In this document: positions 1,614-36,271 of the stretch, one piece after another
How positions within the stretch are numbered: the first letter of the stretch is position 1
Layout of the letters: every line of letters begins with the position of its first letter
IMG/VR virus record: IMGVR_UViG_2695420676_000012
Length of the DNA: 36,271 nt
Strand: one strand, 5' to 3'
Source of the DNA: a virus
Taxonomy: Duplodnaviria > Heunggongvirae > Uroviricota > Caudoviricetes
Translations under genes and position numbers: made by a program
The notes under the pieces: generated by a model
What the model was told of the DNA's origin: nothing
Seen by the model: the letters and a program-made list of their open reading frames with translations, nothing else
Databases searched by the model: none

Positions 1614-1653
1614 GCCCCTATCGTTATAATACGCGGTAGGGGCGTTTTTGTTT
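1614..1653 (+). terminator. terminator-like hairpin plus T-run
   Basis: 'gcccctA...Taggggc' inverted repeat followed by 'gtttttgttt'; overlaps the TTG-initiated extension of the recombinase ORF. Confidence 0.4.
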
Positions 1654-1662
1654 GGAAATGGT

Positions 1663-3342
1663 ATGAAAACTAAACTGTATTCGTATATTCGCTTCTCGTC
1701 TATGCGTCAGAATGATGGTTCGAGTTATGAACGACAAATCAGGATGGCGAGAGAGGTTGCGGCAAAGTATGACCTTGAACTGGTAAATGATTATCAGGAT
1801 CTGGGTGTATCTGCGTTTAAGGGTGCTAACTCCAAAACAGGGGCGCTATCTCGTTTCCTTGATGCAATAGGTAGATCCGTTCCTGTTGGTAGCTGGCTAT
1901 TCATCGAAAACTTGGACCGTTTATCCCGTGCCGATATTGTCAGTGCGCAGGAGTTATTCCTTTCAATCATCCGTAGGGGGATAACCATTGTTACTGGCAT
2001 GGATAACAAGATCTACTCGCTGGATACTGTTACCGCTAACCCGATGGACCTGATGTTCTCCATCCTTTTATTCATCCGTGGTAATGAGGAAAGCCAGACT
2101 AAGCGCAATCGTACTAACTCAAGCGCACTGATTAAGATTAAAGCCCATCAAGAAAATCCCCAGAATCCGGCAGTGGCAATCGAGGAAGTTGGAAAGAATA
2201 TGTGGTGGACTGATACCACTTCCGGTTATGTGTTGCCTCATCCTACATACTTCCCTGTTGTTCAGGAGATTGTGGAATTACGGAAGAATGGACGTTCAAC
2301 CGCCGAGATACTGGATCACCTTAACGAGACATATACACCGCCACCAGCGGTTAGTAATAAGAAGCATTCAAAATGGTCACGGGCAATGGTTGAAAGGTTG
2401 TTCCATACCCGCGCTTTGATTGGTATCAAGGAGGTCTCTGTCGATGGTGTTAACTATGAGTTAAAGGATTATTACCCTCGTGTTATTGATGATGCTACGT
2501 TCTATCACCTTAAGAAAAATATTGGTGCTAGAGCATGGAACTTTGGAGACAAGGAAGAAGTTAAACCGATCCCCCTGCTTAGTGGTATTGGCCTATTGAA
2601 ATGTGATCATTGCGGTTGCGCTATGGTTAAAGTGAAGGGAACGAACAAACGTTCTGACCAGTATCGTTATACATGTGATGCGACCCGTTCACGTAGACTT
2701 GATTGCGAGCATCCAAACTGGAGTTTTCGAGGTGATCAATTAGAGAAAGCTGTATTGCAATTGCTGGCTGATAAAATCTGGATTGCTGAGGACAAGGCTA
2801 ATCCGGTTCCGGCGTTGAAAGTACAGGTTGATGAAATATCACGCAAGATTGATAACCTGATTGCCCTTTCTGCTATGACAGGAGCAACGAAGGAGTTAGC
2901 CGATCAGATTACTACCCTCAATAGCGAGCGTGAAACACTCTACAATCAGATCAAGATGGCAGAAGAGGAAATGTATTCTGTGGACTCTCAAGGCTGGGAG
3001 AAGCTCGCAGAATTTGATTTAGAAGATGTTTATAACGAGGAACGACTAAAGGTCCGGTTTAAGATTAAGCAAGCTCTAAAGCGGATCGGGTGTAGCAGGA
3101 TTGACAGGAATAAAAACTTGTTTGTACTGGAATACATCGATGGAAAGACCCAGAGAGTTGTAATAGAAAATTCAAGAGGAACGAGGAAAGGACAAATCTT
3201 TGTCGATTTGAAAACTATCAATGATAGGCAGATTCTGGAGAGTAACGGGCTTGTTTTGCATCCATGTTTAGACATGCTGACAGATAAGAACTGGAAACCA
3301 GAAGAGGAAATACCAGGTCCATTACAGGAATTTGGAATTTAA
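1663..3342 (+). CDS. large serine recombinase (integrase/resolvase family)
   Basis: N-terminal resolvase catalytic motifs 'YIRFSSMRQ' and 'GVSAF...LFIENLDRLSR'; downstream Cys cluster 'CDHCGCAM...YRYTCD...LDCEH' (zinc ribbon) and coiled-coil segment; track ORF opens at 1648 with TTG, first ATG at 1663. Confidence 0.8.
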   Translation: MKTKLYSYIRFSSMRQNDGSSYERQIRMAREVAAKYDLELVNDYQDLGVSAFKGANSKTGALSRFLDAIGRSVPVGSWLFIENLDRLSRADIVSAQELFLSIIRRGITIVTGMDNKIYSLDTVTANPMDLMFSILLFIRGNEESQTKRNRTNSSALIKIKAHQENPQNPAVAIEEVGKNMWWTDTTSGYVLPHPTYFPVVQEIVELRKNGRSTAEILDHLNETYTPPPAVSNKKHSKWSRAMVERLFHTRALIGIKEVSVDGVNYELKDYYPRVIDDATFYHLKKNIGARAWNFGDKEEVKPIPLLSGIGLLKCDHCGCAMVKVKGTNKRSDQYRYTCDATRSRRLDCEHPNWSFRGDQLEKAVLQLLADKIWIAEDKANPVPALKVQVDEISRKIDNLIALSAMTGATKELADQITTLNSERETLYNQIKMAEEEMYSVDSQGWEKLAEFDLEDVYNEERLKVRFKIKQALKRIGCSRIDRNKNLFVLEYIDGKTQRVVIENSRGTRKGQIFVDLKTINDRQILESNGLVLHPCLDMLTDKNWKPEEEIPGPLQEFGI

Positions 3343-3415: not shown

Positions 3416-4414
3416 TTAAAGAGCCTCTAAAGGGCTTAAATCGAGTTCTAAGTCTTCCGGTGTTAAATCAGCTAACGGTGCATTCATCCACTGCGATAAA
3501 TCTCGTTCTATGTCTTCATCACTAATGTAGTTGTTCAGATTGATTGCGTTGGTATCATCAAAATACATTGGCTTAGATGGGTTGGTGTGGATGTATTCAT
3601 TGATGAATGATTTAACATCTTTCAGCTTGCTAATCGGTAGCGTTTCTGTGAATCCGCTATTCATTACCTTACGTGGGATTTTCTTGCCCTGAATATTCTT
3701 TTTAATCCCCATTTCTAAATCACCAGCTTTCCATCCAATGTTAAACAAATGTGAGCATTCAAAGGTGATTTTCTCGCTGGTGTGCTTCTGGTGTTCTCTT
3801 ACCCGTTGCATCGGATCTTTGCGAGTGGTAATTCCATATTTGAAAAACTTCTCGCCAACACGAATTAGATAAAAGTGCATAGGGCGCTGTGCAAACTTGT
3901 TTCTGATAACCTGTTTTCTACCATTCTGAATTGATTTAAGTACCCCCCTAACCAAAGGGCATGTTAACCCGCCTTGTCTGCGGTTATTGTGTAAATCACC
4001 TTTCTTGTGAATCTTTCCGTGGCACTTACAACGAAGAATTAGTTTAGTGTCAACACCCTGATAAGGTTCAGCCAGACCTAACACATCCCACCCTATCGGC
4101 TTGTAGAACTTGCGAGCGTTTTCTAAGTGTTCTTCTTCGGTAAATCTAAACTTCTTCTTAGGCGGTGATACTCTATCTTTGCCAGTAAACTGACCAGTTA
4201 GAACATGACTAATACATGGCGTTTTAACCTTTCCGTTAACTTCTATGCAAACTTTGGTGTTCTGGAATGGTTTCTTTACAGGAAGCACAAAACCACTGTA
4301 TAACCATCCATGCGCTTGACAAACTTTAATGATTCTGGTTTCATATTCGACCGGAGGGGTCGCACGTTTGCTTTTTGCGGTAAATTCGATATCCTTTGCT
4401 AAAGTAGTATTCAT
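3416..4414 (-). CDS. GIY-YIG-like nuclease domain protein (candidate free-standing homing endonuclease), 332 aa
   Basis: Central segment 'FYLIRVGEKFFKYGIT...RVREH...ITFECSHLF...LEMGIKKNI' resembles the GIY / YIG / Arg / FECS / Glu spacing of I-TevI-type nucleases; Cys/His-rich N-terminal part; SD GAGGA before ATG. Confidence 0.4.
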   Translation of the reverse strand: MNTTLAKDIEFTAKSKRATPPVEYETRIIKVCQAHGWLYSGFVLPVKKPFQNTKVCIEVNGKVKTPCISHVLTGQFTGKDRVSPPKKKFRFTEEEHLENARKFYKPIGWDVLGLAEPYQGVDTKLILRCKCHGKIHKKGDLHNNRRQGGLTCPLVRGVLKSIQNGRKQVIRNKFAQRPMHFYLIRVGEKFFKYGITTRKDPMQRVREHQKHTSEKITFECSHLFNIGWKAGDLEMGIKKNIQGKKIPRKVMNSGFTETLPISKLKDVKSFINEYIHTNPSKPMYFDDTNAINLNNYISDEDIERDLSQWMNAPLADLTPEDLELDLSPLEAL

Positions 4415-4456
4415 AGTAGTGAATCCTCAATAAAATAATATTCACTACTATTTATA
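4414..4456 (-). promoter_or_regulatory. TATAAATA box plus 11-bp hairpin occluding the RBS/start codon of the 3416-4414 gene
   Basis: Minus-strand 'TTATAAATAgtagtgaat[loop with GAGG]attcactactATG'; perfect 11-bp inverted repeat 4414-4424 / 4440-4450. Confidence 0.45.
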
Positions 4457-12258: not shown

Positions 12259-12306
12259 GAAAAGCCCCCATAGTTTTATGATTATTTATCACTATGGGGG
12301 CTTTTA
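12259..12306 (-). terminator. intercistronic hairpin (attenuator) between tape-measure and distal tail genes
   Basis: Perfect 11-bp inverted repeat 'agcccccatag / ctatgggggct' with 18-nt loop; on the minus transcript followed by 'UUUUCU' and the ATG; 3' arm contains the SD. Confidence 0.45.
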
Positions 12307-26338: not shown

Positions 26339-28246
26339 TTAGAACGATGTTACCCAGCTACGGCCTCTATTTGGGCGTCTGGCGATGTTTTGACGTTGCG
26401 GTCGTGTGATTGGCTTAGTTTCTTCGATTTGCTCGTCAGATTGCGATTCAGGAGCTTTTACGGGTTCTTCTTTAACGCTGTTTAAGCTGTCTTTCATTGC
26501 AATGAGTTTATCCCATGACATTTTTGAAAGGACGTAGCGAGAAGCAGCATAGCTATAAACCAGACAGTCGAGAGCCTCGTTTCGGGTACTACCTGGATTT
26601 TTCACCCAACGAACACCAGTAGTAGTACGCTTGATGGATTCACTCAAAAGCTGATCGAGATAATCATCAGGAACGGTTTCTGATATTTCTAAGCCAATAT
26701 GAGGATTATCTTTCAGGTTTCTAACCAGCATTTCACGAACAGCGGATTTACCAACGTTAACGCCCAGCATAAGCAATTCATGACCACCTGTGCGGGTAGG
26801 TTTAACCGGAATCACTGGAGCATTACCAGATGAACTACCTTTAATAGCGTGTAGGTTCTTCCACTTACCACAAATACGGTATCCGGCTTGAGTGAATCGA
26901 CCGTTTGATGTATCGAGGAAGCTGGCGAGCATTGGCACACGTTCACCATTAACGTTATAGAATTTGGTTTTCTTGAAGTTAACCAGACGATCCCATACAG
27001 GTGATTCGTATCGTTCACAGTTATGATCGTAAAAGCTACGGTGATCCAGAATGTAAACCTTATCTTTCGCTACACCTAAGATGGTAGATTCTGCGCGATC
27101 CAATTGCTGGTCAATTCCTGAGCACAAGAAAATCACGTCATCAGGGATATTCTCGATAGAAACATCTGTTTTGAGTTGTTCCAGTTCATTTGCTTCTACT
27201 GCCGTGTCCTGATCATCGTATACCTTGCCTAACACGGTGTTATAAAATGATTGTAAATCAAAGGATTGCCACGCATGACTAAAATCAACCACACAAGCGC
27301 GGATCGTGCTGAAAGGTGAATACAGACGGCTAATCCAGAATCCTGCTACTTCACTTTCACGGGTTGCTCTCCACTCGCCTTGCGCTACTGCCCTGATTCG
27401 TTCCCCTTCTGTCCATGCGTTCTTACAGTGGGGGCAAATATAACGAGCGGTATCAGGATCGGGTAAGTTCTTACCATCGATGTTACGCCATTCAAATTGA
27501 ACGTTTTCCCACTCGATCACCTGGTGTTCCCCGCAATGAGGACACGGAACAAAAAACATACGCATATCGCTTGATAACCATTGCTGGTTAATGCTTCCGA
27601 GCTTACTGGTCGGGGTACTGGATACGACTAATCGGCCTTCATCGCCAAAGGTAGTTAAACGGTTAGCAGCCAGTGCCACCGGATCACCTTCTTCTGAGGC
27701 TGTAGCAGCATCGATTTCGTCTAGTAGTCCGACCTTTGCGGTCTTACCACGTAGGGTCGATGGACTGGTTAGCGATACCATGTACAGGAAGTGATTCGTT
27801 TTTAGCTGTAGCTGGTTATTGTTGTTAACCGCATTGCGATCATTCTTGTCTGTAACCACGTCTTTTAATGCATCACATGCTTCGATAGACGGTCGGATCT
27901 TACCAGCGAGATATTGAGACATTTCTTTAGCGGTTGATTGTCCGATAATCATATTGCATGGATCGTTAGCCATCTGGTTAAACAGGATGCCGTTCAAGAT
28001 GGTAGTCTTTCCGATCTGCGCACTGGTCATCAGAACATACTTTTTCTTGTTCTCAAGGAAAGGAGCATCAATCATACCTTTCTGGAATGACAGCAATTTA
28101 ACTTTATCCCCAGCTTGAGGACCATCTACCAGCACCATATTAGCTTCGCACCATTCAGAAGGAAGGAGTTTAGGCGGTGGCGTAATATATTTGGCTGCAT
28201 TTCTGAGAATCTTTTTTAATTTGGCCTTATTAGAAATTAGTTTCAT
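26339..28246 (-). CDS. terminase large subunit, lambda gpA family, 635 aa
   Basis: Walker-A-like 'AQIGKTT'; 'PCPHCGEHQ' and 'YICPHCK' zinc-finger-like motifs; 'GIDQQLDR'; '[14 protein letters not shown]'; order and spacing match gpA as I recall it. Confidence 0.9.
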
Positions 28247-28936: not shown

Positions 28937-28965
28937 AGGTGAACATTCACTTTAATTTGGAGAAA

Positions 28966-29196
28966 ATGACTATGACTACTAAAGCTACTCGCGGTCGCCC
29001 TGCCCGTTTTAATCGTGAACAACTGGCAGCGATTGTAAAAGCGTACTATCAAGCACCGAAAGGTAAAGAGAACAAAGAACGGGTATTAAATGAGCATGGC
29101 TTATCTATAGCCCAGCTATACAAATCCCTACATAAAGTTGATTTGAAATTCTTTGTTCAGGTTGACGGTGAAATGGTAGAAGCAACAGGAATTTGA
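28966..29196 (+). CDS. small HTH DNA-binding protein (RP.KF.RE...HTH module), ~76 aa
   Basis: 'GRPARFNREQLAAIVKAYY...HGLSIAQLYKSLHK...VQV'; start at ATG with SD 'GGAGAAA' (track ORF opens with GTG at 28939); paralog of 32781-32960. Confidence 0.5.
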   Translation: MTMTTKATRGRPARFNREQLAAIVKAYYQAPKGKENKERVLNEHGLSIAQLYKSLHKVDLKFFVQVDGEMVEATGI

Positions 29197-30423: not shown

Positions 30424-30756
30424 TTACCAATCGATTTCTACTTGGTCTTCTTCATAATAAGGAATCGCATATTCATAACGCCAATTTTCGATGATTTCAC
30501 GTTCTTCATTAGTAAGAAGGTGATTGTTAACTGGAGTCGCATTGTGATTACCAGCTTCGAATTGCTCGCGAACTTCCAGCATTGCATGAATACCAGTTAA
30601 GGTCATCAGATCAAACGGAACATGCATACTACGGGAGATAGTTTCACGGGATACACCCCAATCATTTTCTACATGGCTAGGGGTTACAGAAACGGTTTTG
30701 CCGGAGATTTTAACAGTCCAGTCATACAGGGATTTAGTGATGGTAAATTCTTTCAT
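30424..30756 (-). CDS. hypothetical protein, 110 aa
   Basis: ORF with SD 'AAGAGGA'. Confidence 0.5.
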   Translation of the reverse strand: MKEFTITKSLYDWTVKISGKTVSVTPSHVENDWGVSRETISRSMHVPFDLMTLTGIHAMLEVREQFEAGNHNATPVNNHLLTNEEREIIENWRYEYAIPYYEEDQVEIDW

Positions 30757-30802
30757 GTTACATCCTCTTTACAAATCTAGGTCAAATAGATTCAAAGTTG
30801 TC

Positions 30803-30830
30803 AAGTGCGATAATCATAAAAAAGTCAGAA
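30803..30830 (-). promoter_or_regulatory. sigma70-like promoter candidate (minus strand) inside an inverted TTGTCAA/TTGACAA pair
   Basis: Minus-strand 'TTGACA'-17 nt-'TATGAT'; plus strand shows 'ttgtcaa-tacccc-ttgacaa' inverted repeat at 30825-30847. Confidence 0.3.
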
Positions 30831-30876
30831 ATTTTTGTCAATACCCCTTGACAAGACGCCAAAGGGTTGACCTAAC

Positions 30877-31355: not shown

Positions 31356-31386
31356 AGTGAATCAAGTAAGTTCACTATTATTTATA
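31356..31386 (-). promoter_or_regulatory. TATAAATA box followed by GTGAA/TTCAC hairpin upstream of the 30877-31335 gene
   Basis: Minus-strand 'TTATAAATAatAGTGAActtacttgaTTCACT...AGAGGA...ATG'; same architecture as 4414-4456 and 32508-32537. Confidence 0.4.
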
Positions 31387-31588
31387 AAGAGAAAATTCTT
31401 GTTATTATGAAAGGTGATTGTATTCAGTCGGGCAAAGCCCTCCTTCATGATTTGATTAAATTATGATCAAAACGAAGAAGTATCTTTAGAATATAATAAT
31501 CTTTCTTTTGGAGAAATAATAATCAGGAAGTAATTTAGCAACCGAAGGTTGCAATCCCGAAGGGATACCAATACCTTTCATGATCATT

Positions 31589-31846
31589 AAAGTGATCTAG
31601 AATCATCTAGTAACCAGTTAACTACTATTATCTTCAAAGTGATTATTACTATCTTTCTAGAATCAGTTAGTAACTAGTATTAAATCCCTTTCGAGAAAAT
31701 CCTTTCAGAAGTGATTCTCGATGCCACGCAGTGGCGTCGCAGACGTTTGAGAGTGAGCGAAGCGAGCGAGCAAACTAGTTAATTCCTTCTAAGACCATCT
31801 AGTATCATCTAGTTTAAATTAGTTGTTACTAGAAGTAATTGGTTAG
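31589..31846. repeat. CTAG-rich imperfect direct/palindromic repeats in an ORF-free region
   Basis: 'aaagtgat' x3 (31589, 31636, 31708); 'tctagaatca(t/g)(c/t)tagtaac(c/t)agt' x2 plus variant 'tctaagaccatctagtatcatctag'; palindromes 'agttaact', 'actagt'. Confidence 0.45.
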
Positions 31847-32017
31847 CGCTTCGCGCAGTCGGGCTACGCCCTCCTAATTATCTTTTTGGTTATTTGTTGT
31901 TTTTAGTTTTACACATGAGCGTAGCGAATGTGTTATATAATATCTATGCACGCCCGATCCCCCGCTTTTACCCCTCGCTAAGTTAATGTTTTATAAAGAG
32001 TTTTTATCACCAATCCT

Positions 32018-32216
32018 TTTCAGGGGCAAAAATGAGGGGCAAAAATTAGATTTTCAGGGGCAATTATTGGCATTTCAGGGGCAAAAATGAGGGGCAAAAT
32101 CACTGTTTCCCAGAATTTCAGGGGCAAAAATAGTAGGTTTCAGGGGCAAAAATGGGATAGTAGAATCTTGGGGATTTTATTCGGGGGCAAAAATTCAGAA
32201 TTTCAGGGGCAATTCC
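32018..32216. repeat. direct-repeat (iteron-like) array: 9 copies of (T)TCAGGGGCAA(A)AAT core
   Basis: 'GGGGCAA' at 32023, 32036, 32057, 32078, 32091, 32121, 32143, 32184, 32206; exact 27-nt duplicate 'tttcaggggcaaaaatgaggggcaaaa' at 32018 and 32073; spacings 13/21/21/13/30/22/41/22 nt. Confidence 0.8.
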
Positions 32217-32408
32217 CATCAAATATTTTGATAGAAAATTCTTGTATATTATTTAATCAAAAAATCACCAAAAAGTGGCGTAAGTTAATGATTTAAAAAG
32301 AATTGTCAAAAGGTCTCCGTGCTATAATAGGTTATAAAGGTTGATAATCCTGATCTACAATTTTCAAACAAAAATTTTGATAGTCATTTCTCGCTTAGGT
32401 CAAGTGCA

Positions 32409-32437
32409 TTGACAACTGTCAAGGATTATTTTATACT
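32409..32437 (+). promoter_or_regulatory. consensus sigma70 promoter with palindromic -35 (TTGACA-AC-TGTCAA)
   Basis: 'TTGACA' (32409-32414), 17-nt spacer, 'TATACT' (32432-32437); -35 lies in a perfect inverted repeat. Confidence 0.55.
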
Positions 32438-32507
32438 TTTTCTCACTGGTGGGGGTTGAAATTTTCTAAACAGTCCCCATATAGATGATAAGCAAGAATT
32501 TCCACGT

Positions 32508-32537
32508 TATAAATACATGTGTGAAATGATTGTTCAC
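32508..32537 (+). promoter_or_regulatory. TATAAATA box followed by GTGAA/TTCAC hairpin
   Basis: 'TATAAATA' 32508-32515, hairpin 'gtgaa-atgattg-ttcac' 32521-32537. Confidence 0.4.
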
Positions 32538-32574
32538 TTCTGAAAATCTCCTGATTCACTGCTAATTCATACAT

Positions 32575-32600
32575 CACTGGTTAGATATACAGTGCTTTTT
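32575..32600 (+). terminator. terminator-like hairpin plus T-run in the leader region
   Basis: 'cactg-gttagatata-cagtg' followed by 'cttttt'. Confidence 0.4.
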
Positions 32601-32658
32601 CGGTTGAATATTGTACGAATTGATTAATAATTAATCTTCTCTTTAGCAATTCGTGCTC

Positions 32659-32686
32659 CCACTGATCGGATATACAGTGGTTTTAC
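32659..32686 (+). terminator. terminator-like hairpin plus T-run
   Basis: 'ccactg-atcggatata-cagtgg' followed by 'tttta...gggttttc'. Confidence 0.4.
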
Positions 32687-32707
32687 AGGGTTTTCTGACA
32701 ATCATTT

Positions 32708-32747
32708 TATAAATACAAGTGTTCAGAGCGAAATGCTCTTTTTTTAA
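32708..32747 (+). promoter_or_regulatory. TATAAATA box followed by hairpin plus T7 run (attenuator-like) before the 32781 gene
   Basis: 'TATAAATA' 32708-32715; 'agagc-gaaat-gctct' 32725-32739; 'ttttttt' 32740-32746. Confidence 0.4.
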
Positions 32748-32780
32748 GAAATTATTAATCCACATGTGAGGAATCGACTG

Positions 32781-32960
32781 ATGGCTAGACCTGTTAAGTT
32801 CACTCGTGAAATGATTGTTGATATTGCTAAACGCTTTTACAGCGACACTGAGCGAGGCGGGGAAAACTTCTTTAAGAAGGAAGGAATTGATAGAAGCGGA
32901 TTCTACAAGCTAATGAAGAAATACGAAATTCAGGTAAAGATTAACGTTCAAGTTTGTTAA
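32781..32960 (+). CDS. small HTH DNA-binding protein, paralog of 28966-29196 (~59 aa)
   Basis: 'ARPVKFTREMIVDIAKRFY...GIDRSGFYKLMKKYEIQVKINVQV'; start at ATG with SD 'GAGGA' (track ORF opens with GTG at 32766). Confidence 0.5.
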   Translation: MARPVKFTREMIVDIAKRFYSDTERGGENFFKKEGIDRSGFYKLMKKYEIQVKINVQVC

Positions 32961-33074
32961 TCCACTTTCACTGAGAATTATATGATGGCTTTAAAAAAGA
33001 AAAAGCCTCCCTTGTTGCAGCAAAGGAGGCTTGAAATGAACAATTAAAACTAACTTTCCACAGGAGTATTTATA

Positions 33075-35121: not shown

Positions 35122-35673
35122 TTAAGACACATCAAATTCATCGTCTTCTTCTGGTTCTTGTTCCGGTTCATCGATTAATGGTAATTCTTCTTCCTCGTCA
35201 TCGCCTAAATCCGCATTTTCGAACAAGTCCCCTACTTCATTTAAACGACGCTCGATGATCTCCCTTAGCTTATTCTTCAATGTTTTCTGATCAGTGGCAG
35301 ATTCGAGAATTTCTAAAGCGTCGATTGTGGCGATCTGCAAAATAGTCTGTTTCACCTTTCCGCAATATTCCGCTAGCTCCTGCTCAACATACCCGACCGG
35401 AATCAGGAGATTCATTGCTTCCTGGTTCTCTCGTTCGATAGCGTCAGCCTCGCCTCGCGCCTTGCGTAGTTTCTCTTGTTGGATTTGGGCTTGTACATCC
35501 ACTTCCCGCAAAGGATTGATTATGTTGGTGAGTATCCACTTAATGGCTAGATCGCGAGGACAACGGCGGGTATTAGAATTGAATGGCAAACCGCGTTCTT
35601 TCCATTTAGTGACAGCCGGAAGTGAATAACCATACATTTTCGATAATTCTGTTAGTGTAATTTCTGCGGACAC
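35122..35673 (-). CDS. Nu1-like small terminase subunit candidate (winged-HTH N-terminus, acidic C-terminus), 183 aa
   Basis: N-terminal 'LTELSKMYGYSLPAVTKWKERGLPF...LAIKWIL' resembles my recollection of lambda Nu1 'KKQLADIFGASIRTIQNWQEQGMPV...VIKWY'; size matches Nu1 (~181 aa); GTG start with SD 'GGAGGA'. Confidence 0.45.
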   Translation of the reverse strand: MSAEITLTELSKMYGYSLPAVTKWKERGLPFNSNTRRCPRDLAIKWILTNIINPLREVDVQAQIQQEKLRKARGEADAIERENQEAMNLLIPVGYVEQELAEYCGKVKQTILQIATIDALEILESATDQKTLKNKLREIIERRLNEVGDLFENADLGDDEEEELPLIDEPEQEPEEDDEFDVS

Positions 35674-35698
35674 TTTTTAATCCTCCATATTAGAAAAT

Positions 35699-35729
35699 TT
35701 GCGTAATGGTATTTAGATGAATTACGCAA
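35699..35729. promoter_or_regulatory. perfect 9-bp inverted repeat with 13-bp spacer (operator or packaging-site candidate)
   Basis: 'TTGCGTAAT-ggtatttagatga-ATTACGCAA' 26-56 nt upstream of the terS-like start. Confidence 0.35.
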
Positions 35730-35905
35730 TAAAACGCGCTGTAATGAGATGAGAGAGATCGGCGTGTGATAAGGCGTTGAAGGGTGTTTTAGCTCGTTGT
35801 GGAGTGTGCTGGAGGGCTTAACTAAACCGTTTTGAAAAATGCTCACGCACATCAAAAACCGGGGTGCCGAAAACTCGCTTTATTTCACTCGTGGAACAGT
35901 ACCTT

Positions 35906-35934
35906 TTGATTTTGTCAAGTCTTTTTTATAAATA
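35906..35934 (+). promoter_or_regulatory. sigma70-like promoter candidate with TATAAATA -10 region
   Basis: 'TTGATT' (35906-35911), 15-16 nt spacer, 'TATAAATA' (35927-35934); ATG at 35966. Confidence 0.4.
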
Positions 35935-35965
35935 ATCGAAAATATTTTTCACACGAGGGCAAATC

Positions 35966-36271
35966 ATGAAGACTAAAGATATTAAGATTGACTTTGAAAC
36001 TGTTGATGACGTTCGGGAACATCGCATTGATTCTACTGGCTGCATCTTCCAGCTTACTAACTCCCCTATTGGATTGATTATCTATGTAGCAGAAGATGAC
36101 GTGTACGCTATATGGGATGGACAGGATGAGTTTAAAGGCGGGAATAGCCATCTGATCAATACTCATGAGGGATTTGATCCGACTCCTGTCTGTATGCTTG
36201 CTTATCACGTAACACTGGATGAACTACCGGAAGCAAGCGCGCGTATCCGTAGAATGAAAGACATTAAGTGA
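35966..36271 (+). CDS. hypothetical protein, 101 aa
   Basis: ORF with SD 'GAGGG'; stop TGA at the window end. Confidence 0.55.
   Translation: MKTKDIKIDFETVDDVREHRIDSTGCIFQLTNSPIGLIIYVAEDDVYAIWDGQDEFKGGNSHLINTHEGFDPTPVCMLAYHVTLDELPEASARIRRMKDIK

Follow-up and report, generated by a model that had tools for sequence, protein, structure and literature searches.

A conserved inverted repeat around a TAAATA box upstream of the Nu1-type small terminase gene in a family of temperate, siphovirus-like prophages

Immediately upstream of the small terminase gene (terS) in a 36,271-nucleotide prophage record of IMG/VR (IMGVR_UViG_2695420676_000012, the whole of which is referred to here as the window) lies an inverted repeat, at positions 35699-35729, that comparison with related prophages identifies as the fully symmetric version of a conserved site, TGCGnA-N17-TACGCA, built around a TAAATA box. 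By the same comparison, no other non-coding element beside the small terminase gene of this prophage family is as well conserved as this dyad. The conservation of both sequence and spacing around TAAATA points to a protein-binding operator, rather than an RNA hairpin, as the most likely interpretation, and it is probable, if by no means certain, that the dyad serves as an operator covering the terS promoter.

The dyad consists of a proximal arm at 35699-35707 (TTGCGTAAT in plus-strand letters and ATTACGCAA in the terS sense, that is, on the minus strand), with the core TACGCA at 35700-35705; a 13-nt spacer at 35708-35720 (TCATCTAAATACC in the terS sense), which is variable among relatives except for the TAAATA box; and a distal arm at 35721-35729 (ATTACGCAA in plus-strand letters and TTGCGTAAT in the terS sense), with the core TGCGnA at 35723-35728. 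A perfect 9-bp inverted repeat with a 13-bp spacer, placed 26-56 nt upstream of a Nu1-like start, had been described in the original prediction, and both its form and its position were confirmed: the arms are 100% complementary over 9 bp, the repeat cannot be extended, and the open reading frame downstream, 35122-35673 on the minus strand, starts at 35673. The dyad ends 25 nt before the GTG start codon of terS, and the centres of its arms are 22 bp apart, that is, two helical turns, which places both arms on the same face of the DNA. The intergenic region that holds it measures 292 bp and is divergent, with a plus-strand gene (35966-36271) on its other side. The locally GC-richer region that had been noted at 35740-35860 is real but modest, with a GC content of 0.47-0.50 at 35740-35829 against 0.30-0.33 in the flanks. 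This tract of about 90 nt (35740-35830) is strongly C-rich and G-poor on the terS-sense strand, a composition that resembles a rut (Rho utilisation) site.

On its own, a single 9-bp repeat in 36 kb is weak evidence, because chance alone would give about three per window. A count of perfect inverted repeats with arms of 9 bp or longer, 3-20 nt apart, came to 11 k-mer hits at 7 loci in the window, and dinucleotide shuffles of the window gave 3.1 +/- 2.1 such repeats with a maximum of 9; the other loci of the window are mostly terminator-like hairpins. What makes the repeat more than chance is that its core, its spacing and the TAAATA box are conserved at the same place in relatives.

This conservation was assessed in the upstream regions of about 50 loci taken from IMG/VR, from E. 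coli genomes, from Salmonella, Providencia and Edwardsiella assemblies and from metagenomes. The core TGCGnA-N17-TACGCA, with TAAATA in its spacer, is found at the same place in every relative from E. coli, Salmonella and Providencia whose TerS is 47-100% identical. The TACGCA side (as TTACGCA) is invariant in all relatives, and in the 11 distinct variants of the site TGCG and the final A of the distal core are invariant as well, the fifth base being T, C or A. In many lineages the symmetry is broken by changes in the distal arm, the proximal arm being invariant, and the proximal arm may for this reason bear an additional or a different constraint. The distance between the arms is 17 in every variant of TGCGnA-N17-TACGCA, including that of relative L092, in which TAAATA lies 1 nt farther from the distal arm, so that the arm-to-arm spacing is constrained in its own right. 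In an alignment of 14 sequences covering the upstream region of about 260 nt, the dyad forms the longest run of invariant columns, and the rest of the region has mostly diverged or been replaced. A search of all IMG/VR with the composite dyad pattern returned 24 matches, 22 of them upstream of this terS family; the remaining two look like chance. A relative from Edwardsiella (TerS 54% identical) carries a related dyad, CACGTAAA-N14-TTTACGCG, with nearly the same centre-to-centre distance and with TAAATA overlapping its left arm, and upstream of terS in DCP80-like phages (TerS 33-35% identical) the dyad is absent.

The gene downstream of the dyad, terS, encodes a protein of 183 aa and is preceded by a Shine-Dalgarno sequence, GGAGGA, at 35681-35686 on the minus strand, which is kept as (G/A)GAGGA or GGGGGA in relatives. 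The protein matches phrog_57 (small terminase) over nearly its full length (E 1.1e-14). No Pfam match to the open reading frame was obtained at E <= 0.01, the threshold of PF07471 not being reached, and some homologues have no more than faint precomputed matches. A profile of the TerS family aligned by hhalign with lambda Nu1 over 104 columns (probability 96.6%, E 5.5e-10), and a PDB search with it retrieved 6HN7_B (E 3e-4) and 1J9I_A (E 3e-3). The Nu1-like identity proposed earlier for the adjacent gene is borne out by these profile matches, and by sequence homology the gene is a Nu1-type small terminase with an N-terminal winged helix-turn-helix (wHTH). Among relatives the C-terminal half of TerS is almost invariant and the N-terminal wHTH occurs in distinct types, whose recognition helices read SLPAVxKW, T(I/L)NAAKKW or SLNGGxKRW.

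The gene for the large terminase subunit, terL (26339-28246), encodes the GpA ATPase and nuclease domains (Pfam) and is not adjacent to terS; it lies 7 kb away, with genes of the opposite strand in between, and each of the two genes has its own TAAATACC box, which is all that the region upstream of terL has in common with the dyad region. The structural genes of the window are siphovirus-like, and a large serine recombinase is encoded at 1648-3342. Of 5426 complete E. coli genomes, 64 have related DNA on the chromosome; the prophage measures about 37-39 kb there and interrupts the coding sequence of hicB, ycdX or codB (such split-gene insertions are seen in relatives L026 and L050-L060). The family is also present in Salmonella, Providencia and Edwardsiella. 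One or two variable cargo genes separate terS from one end of the prophage, which is 0.7-1.7 kb away. This cargo slot upstream of terS differs between the window (35966-36271) and relatives L051, L058-L060, L091 and L063; it can encode a protein of 101 aa or an LprI-family lysozyme inhibitor, for example, and Edwardsiella has a reverse transcriptase-TIR protein there. Just downstream of terS, Providencia has an AbiTii protein.

No DNA match was found in phage and plasmid collections, hence no close cultured relative; a scan of representative genomes gave only a spurious match of 23 residues, and a search of the published literature turned up no work on this family of prophages. DCP80 is the nearest phage and the only relative in the phage database; its TerL is 43% and its TerS 33% identical, and in it terS and terL are likewise separated, by about 22 kb. 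Its terS upstream region, in very A/T-rich DNA, has a different palindrome; a perfect 14-bp palindrome, GAACTTATAAGTTC, is found at 3898-3911 of the DCP80 record (L001), about 55 nt upstream of the terS-like gene. The DCP80 record is filed under Straboviridae, and its TerL is of GpA type.

The TAAATA box of the spacer (35710-35715, minus strand) is present in all relatives and is promoter-like, with no -35 partner. The window has 26 copies of TAAATA on the minus strand and 7 on the plus strand, and the motif is the most enriched hexamer of the intergenic DNA on the late-gene strand, where 12 of the 26 copies fall in 7% of the sequence (p 5e-8). It stands 10-70 nt upstream of terS, terL and about 12 other minus-strand genes, often directly after a terminator; boxes on this strand start, for example, at 35715, 28281, 26307, 22030, 20455, 15466, 12288, 6770, 5569 and 4454. 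Plus-strand boxes are found at 945, 28302, 28930, 32510, 32710 and 35929, and of the seven copies on this strand six precede genes of the plus strand or fall in an ORF-poor regulatory region; the copy at 35929-35934, the second near terS, lies 31 nt upstream of the divergent gene 35966-36271. A relative prophage of E. coli L3Cip3, for which RefSeq annotation is available, has TAAATA within 80 nt upstream of 20 of its 42 genes, compared with none of the 13 flanking host genes. When 23 TAAATA sites were aligned no further conserved position and no -35 element emerged. From this distribution across prophage genes, about half of which, on both strands, have the box ahead of them, we infer that TAAATA would be the promoter element of terS.

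The box differs from the sigma-70 -10 hexamer, and a sigma-70 promoter at the dyad was considered and rejected: none was called there, every TAnnnT hexamer is too near to TTGCGT, and no -35 match better than 1/6 was present. Among the open reading frames screened with PHROG and Pfam no homologue of a sigma factor, gp55 or gp33 was detected, and an AF2 model of a conserved 200-aa protein gave weak HTH-like matches at most. Late promoters of bacteriophage T4 consist of TATAAATA without a -35 element. The boxes described here are similar in that they are short, A/T-rich, lacking a -35 element and placed 20-60 nt upstream of many genes (here often straight after a terminator), but only the last six of the 8 bases of TATAAATA are conserved, and the genome is that of a temperate prophage of about 37 kb with no gp55, gp33 or other sigma homologue found. 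In DCP80, exact TATAAATA boxes occur upstream of at least three small genes.

Several other features of the window were recorded along with the boxes. A perfect 11-bp inverted repeat at 12264-12301 is a GC-rich terminator hairpin whose loop contains TAAATA, and another perfect 11-bp inverted repeat, at 4414-4450, lies directly 3' of a TAAATA box and encloses the Shine-Dalgarno sequence of an endonuclease gene (3416-4414). A low-GC stretch of about 1.7 kb with few open reading frames (31366-33074), unannotated in RefSeq too, contains a strong sigma-70 promoter at 32409-32437 (TTGACA-17-TATACT), two TAAATA boxes, one of them followed at once by a terminator (32725-32739), and, at both 32575-32594 and 32660-32679, the sequence CACTG-N10-CAGTG, in agreement with the LexA-box pattern CTG-N10-CAG; judged by these features, the stretch may be a switch region under SOS control. 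At 30757-30876, sigma-70 promoters close to consensus (TTGACA-N17-TATGAT and a second TTGACA) precede a 110-aa open reading frame, 30424-30756, which is a candidate early regulator because it is among the few genes without TAAATA.

The favoured reading of the dyad, an operator over the terS promoter, would work as follows. The TAAATA box in the spacer would drive terS, a gene that stands alone near the prophage end, and a dimeric DNA-binding protein would occupy both arms of the dyad; arms that are conserved as sequence, form reverse complements and always stand two helical turns apart are the signature of a dimeric protein site. The bound dimer would cover the promoter from roughly -30 to +10, and this cover would be expected to switch terS transcription off. 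Should the dimer be TerS, its binding to the dyad could both nucleate terminase beside cos and limit its own synthesis. The arrangement resembles classical autoregulated dyad operators in that the symmetry is centred on the promoter core and a single site lies beside the gene of an HTH protein, but the half-sites are two helical turns apart instead of one and the putative promoter is not of the sigma-70 type. An operator acting on a set of genes, that is, a regulon, was rejected because neither half-site nor dyad is repeated: the half-site is not enriched elsewhere in the window, and the full dyad is present in one copy in the window and in one copy in a complete relative prophage.

Which protein would occupy the arms is a separate question. 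TerS itself is the occupant that we favour, tentatively and by analogy; in support of it, the dyad sits where lambda has the R2/R1 inverted repeat, TerS, a wHTH protein like Nu1, is encoded right beside the dyad and the dyad is unique in the prophage, and self-limitation by TerS would make sense since terS is transcribed apart from terL. Weakening it, the core of the dyad is unchanged whether the TerS helix is SLPAV, TINAA or SLNGGG, and whether the distal arm has T or C does not depend on the helix type, while a different element does co-vary with the helix. This is a tandem pentamer element at 35815-35828 on the minus strand (GGTTTAGTTAAGCC in the terS sense), about 150 nt upstream of terS. 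The NAAKKW helix pairs with GTGCAGTGCAG in 23 of 23 loci, including those of Salmonella and the recombinant L057, in which the DNA between the pentamer and terS is of another type and the pairing has still held; PAV/QAV helices pair with pentamer elements of the GTT(T/A)AGTT(A/C)A type, and NGGxKRW helices with GATCA(CTTCA or GTGCA) elements. This co-variation is suggestive at most, because physical linkage could give the same pattern, but it makes the pentamer a better candidate than the dyad for the TerS specificity site, as an equivalent of R3 in cosB. The dyad may then be read by conserved residues of TerS or by another conserved protein. That its occupant is some other conserved regulator, of the phage or of the host, we regard as not very likely; candidate binders besides TerS are the small HTH-like open reading frames 28939-29196 and 32766-32960, and we know of no host-factor consensus that fits TGCGTA-N17-TACGCA.

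The comparison with lambda, in which terminase-binding elements were said to sit immediately upstream of Nu1, holds in its anatomy. In lambda the Nu1-binding R elements at 109-124 and 151-166 form an inverted repeat that ends 24 nt before the ATG of nu1; R2 points the other way from R1 and R3, the wHTH dimer of TerS binds the R sites, and cosN lies 190 nt upstream of nu1, with cosB between the two (PMC4669245). The dyad described here is likewise an inverted repeat before a Nu1-type terS, at 25 nt from the start, the TerS proteins are homologous, and in both systems the N-terminal DNA-binding domain differs between related phages (PMC4669245). Lambda-type cosB contains a repeated element with one copy inverted, comparable to the two inverted copies here. 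The differences are that the arms measure 16 bp in lambda and 9 bp here, with centres 42 bp and 22 bp apart, respectively; that lambda has a third copy, R3, whereas no third half-site was found upstream of the dyad; that between lambda and phage 21 the R sequence changes with the recognition helix of TerS, whereas the dyad core does not; and that a promoter-like box stands between the arms here and terS is apart from terL. Inspection of the spacer by eye for the IHF site WATCAANNNNTTR gave no match.

The architecture of cosB varies among phages with Nu1-type TerS, and one element can be the critical TerS site: the simple cosB of N15 has a single R3 and an inverted rR2 inside the TerS gene (PMC4669245). 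By likeness to N15, the pentamer at 35815-35828 could play the role of R3. A near-copy of the half-site within terS, at 35462-35469, was considered as a counterpart of rR2 and rejected, its synonymous sites not being conserved. A GC-rich island at 35859-35878 on the minus strand (GCGAGTTTTCGGCACCCCGG in the terS sense), 186-205 nt upstream of terS, is at the distance that separates cosN from nu1 in lambda and is, by analogy, a speculative candidate for cosN; the C-rich, G-poor tract at 35740-35830 comes next. When contig ends were used as a proxy for cos, none fell inside the terS intergenic region. Farther upstream, a conserved block at 35898-35918 on the minus strand comprises, in the terS sense, TTGACA (35913-35918) and AGGTACT (35898-35904), which are not a -35/-10 pair, given that the gap between them varies from 7 to 11 nt in relatives.

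Alternative explanations of the dyad have to be weighed against an operator. It could be purely a packaging site, with arms that are TerS-binding R elements equivalent to R2/R1, no role in transcription and a TAAATA that is incidental. Its place and inverted geometry match those of R2/R1 (PMC4669245), the gene that follows the dyad encodes a Nu1-type TerS, TerL belongs to the GpA type and the GC-rich island lies at a lambda-cosN-like distance, but the dyad core stays constant across TerS helices where the pentamer changes, a third half-site is lacking upstream, the near-copy in the gene is not conserved at synonymous sites, and TAAATA, being invariant in the spacer and a motif upstream of genes throughout the genome, is unlikely to be incidental; we therefore judge a pure packaging site unlikely. 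Nor is the dyad easily seen as cosN, at which a TerL dimer seated on the half-sites would place its nicks in the 13-17 nt spacer, giving cohesive ends rich in A/T. Such a role would suit the most conserved element near terS, and the symmetry and spacer length would fit staggered nicking by a TerL of the GpA (cos) type; yet the dyad is 26 nt from the start codon, compared with 190 nt for lambda cosN, where cosB intervenes (PMC4669245), the spacer is variable besides TAAATA and no contig ends lie in the intergenic region. Because of the distance from terS and the variable spacer, a dyad acting as cosN is possible but very improbable.

The symmetry might also have no function of its own, if the arms are separate promoter-proximal elements (an upstream element and an initial transcribed sequence) or a product of chance. 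An invariant proximal arm beside a varying distal arm would be consistent with this, as would the chance expectation of about three such repeats per window. Two independently conserved hexamers would, though, be exact reverse complements with a probability of only about 1/4096, the spacing is 17 in all variants even where TAAATA shifts, and none of the about 22 other TAAATA sites has these arms, all of which makes the explanation improbable. Least credible is a leader RNA hairpin, or a DNA cruciform, with an effect on the translation of terS, on mRNA stability or on termination. The arms can pair into a 9-bp stem, which belongs to the minimum free energy structure and stands 10 nt before the Shine-Dalgarno sequence, but the covariation score over the 11 distinct variants, 0.091, is no different from the shuffled mean of 0.093 (251 of 500 shuffles equal or exceed the observed value), and pairing is broken in 7/11 variants at the outer pair, 4/11 at a central pair and 5/11 at the inner pair. 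Variation in the arms thus breaks pairing with no compensation and gives the hairpin no support; the fold z-score is -1.25, the terminator scan calls none at the dyad, and a transcript starting at TAAATA would be without the distal arm. On covariation, fold z-score and terminator scan, a hairpin or terminator was rejected. An Rfam search of the whole window found nothing at the gathering threshold, and one of 35600-36000 returned a noise match (E 6.6). The original prediction had offered a terminase or repressor site, or else a leader hairpin; its symmetric protein site is supported by the conservation of arms and spacing, and its hairpin, which shows no covariation, is not supported.

A bolder extension of the operator reading, which we consider distinctly unlikely, would have most prophage genes run from T4-late-like TAAATA promoters, with a TerS dimer at the dyad shutting its own promoter; TAAATA would then be recognised by a factor not detectably homologous to any known sigma factor. 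If this were true, the dyad would couple packaging and transcription, with terminase assembly setting the level of a separately transcribed subunit, and the TAAATA motif would be of wider interest if a new transcription factor reads it. A dyad that is simply a repressor site or a TerS site would be a commonplace instance of a known design. The prophages that carry it, temperate and siphovirus-like, form an uncharacterised family, in which the dyad, as the best conserved non-coding element by terS, offers an obvious handle on the control of terS and the start of packaging.
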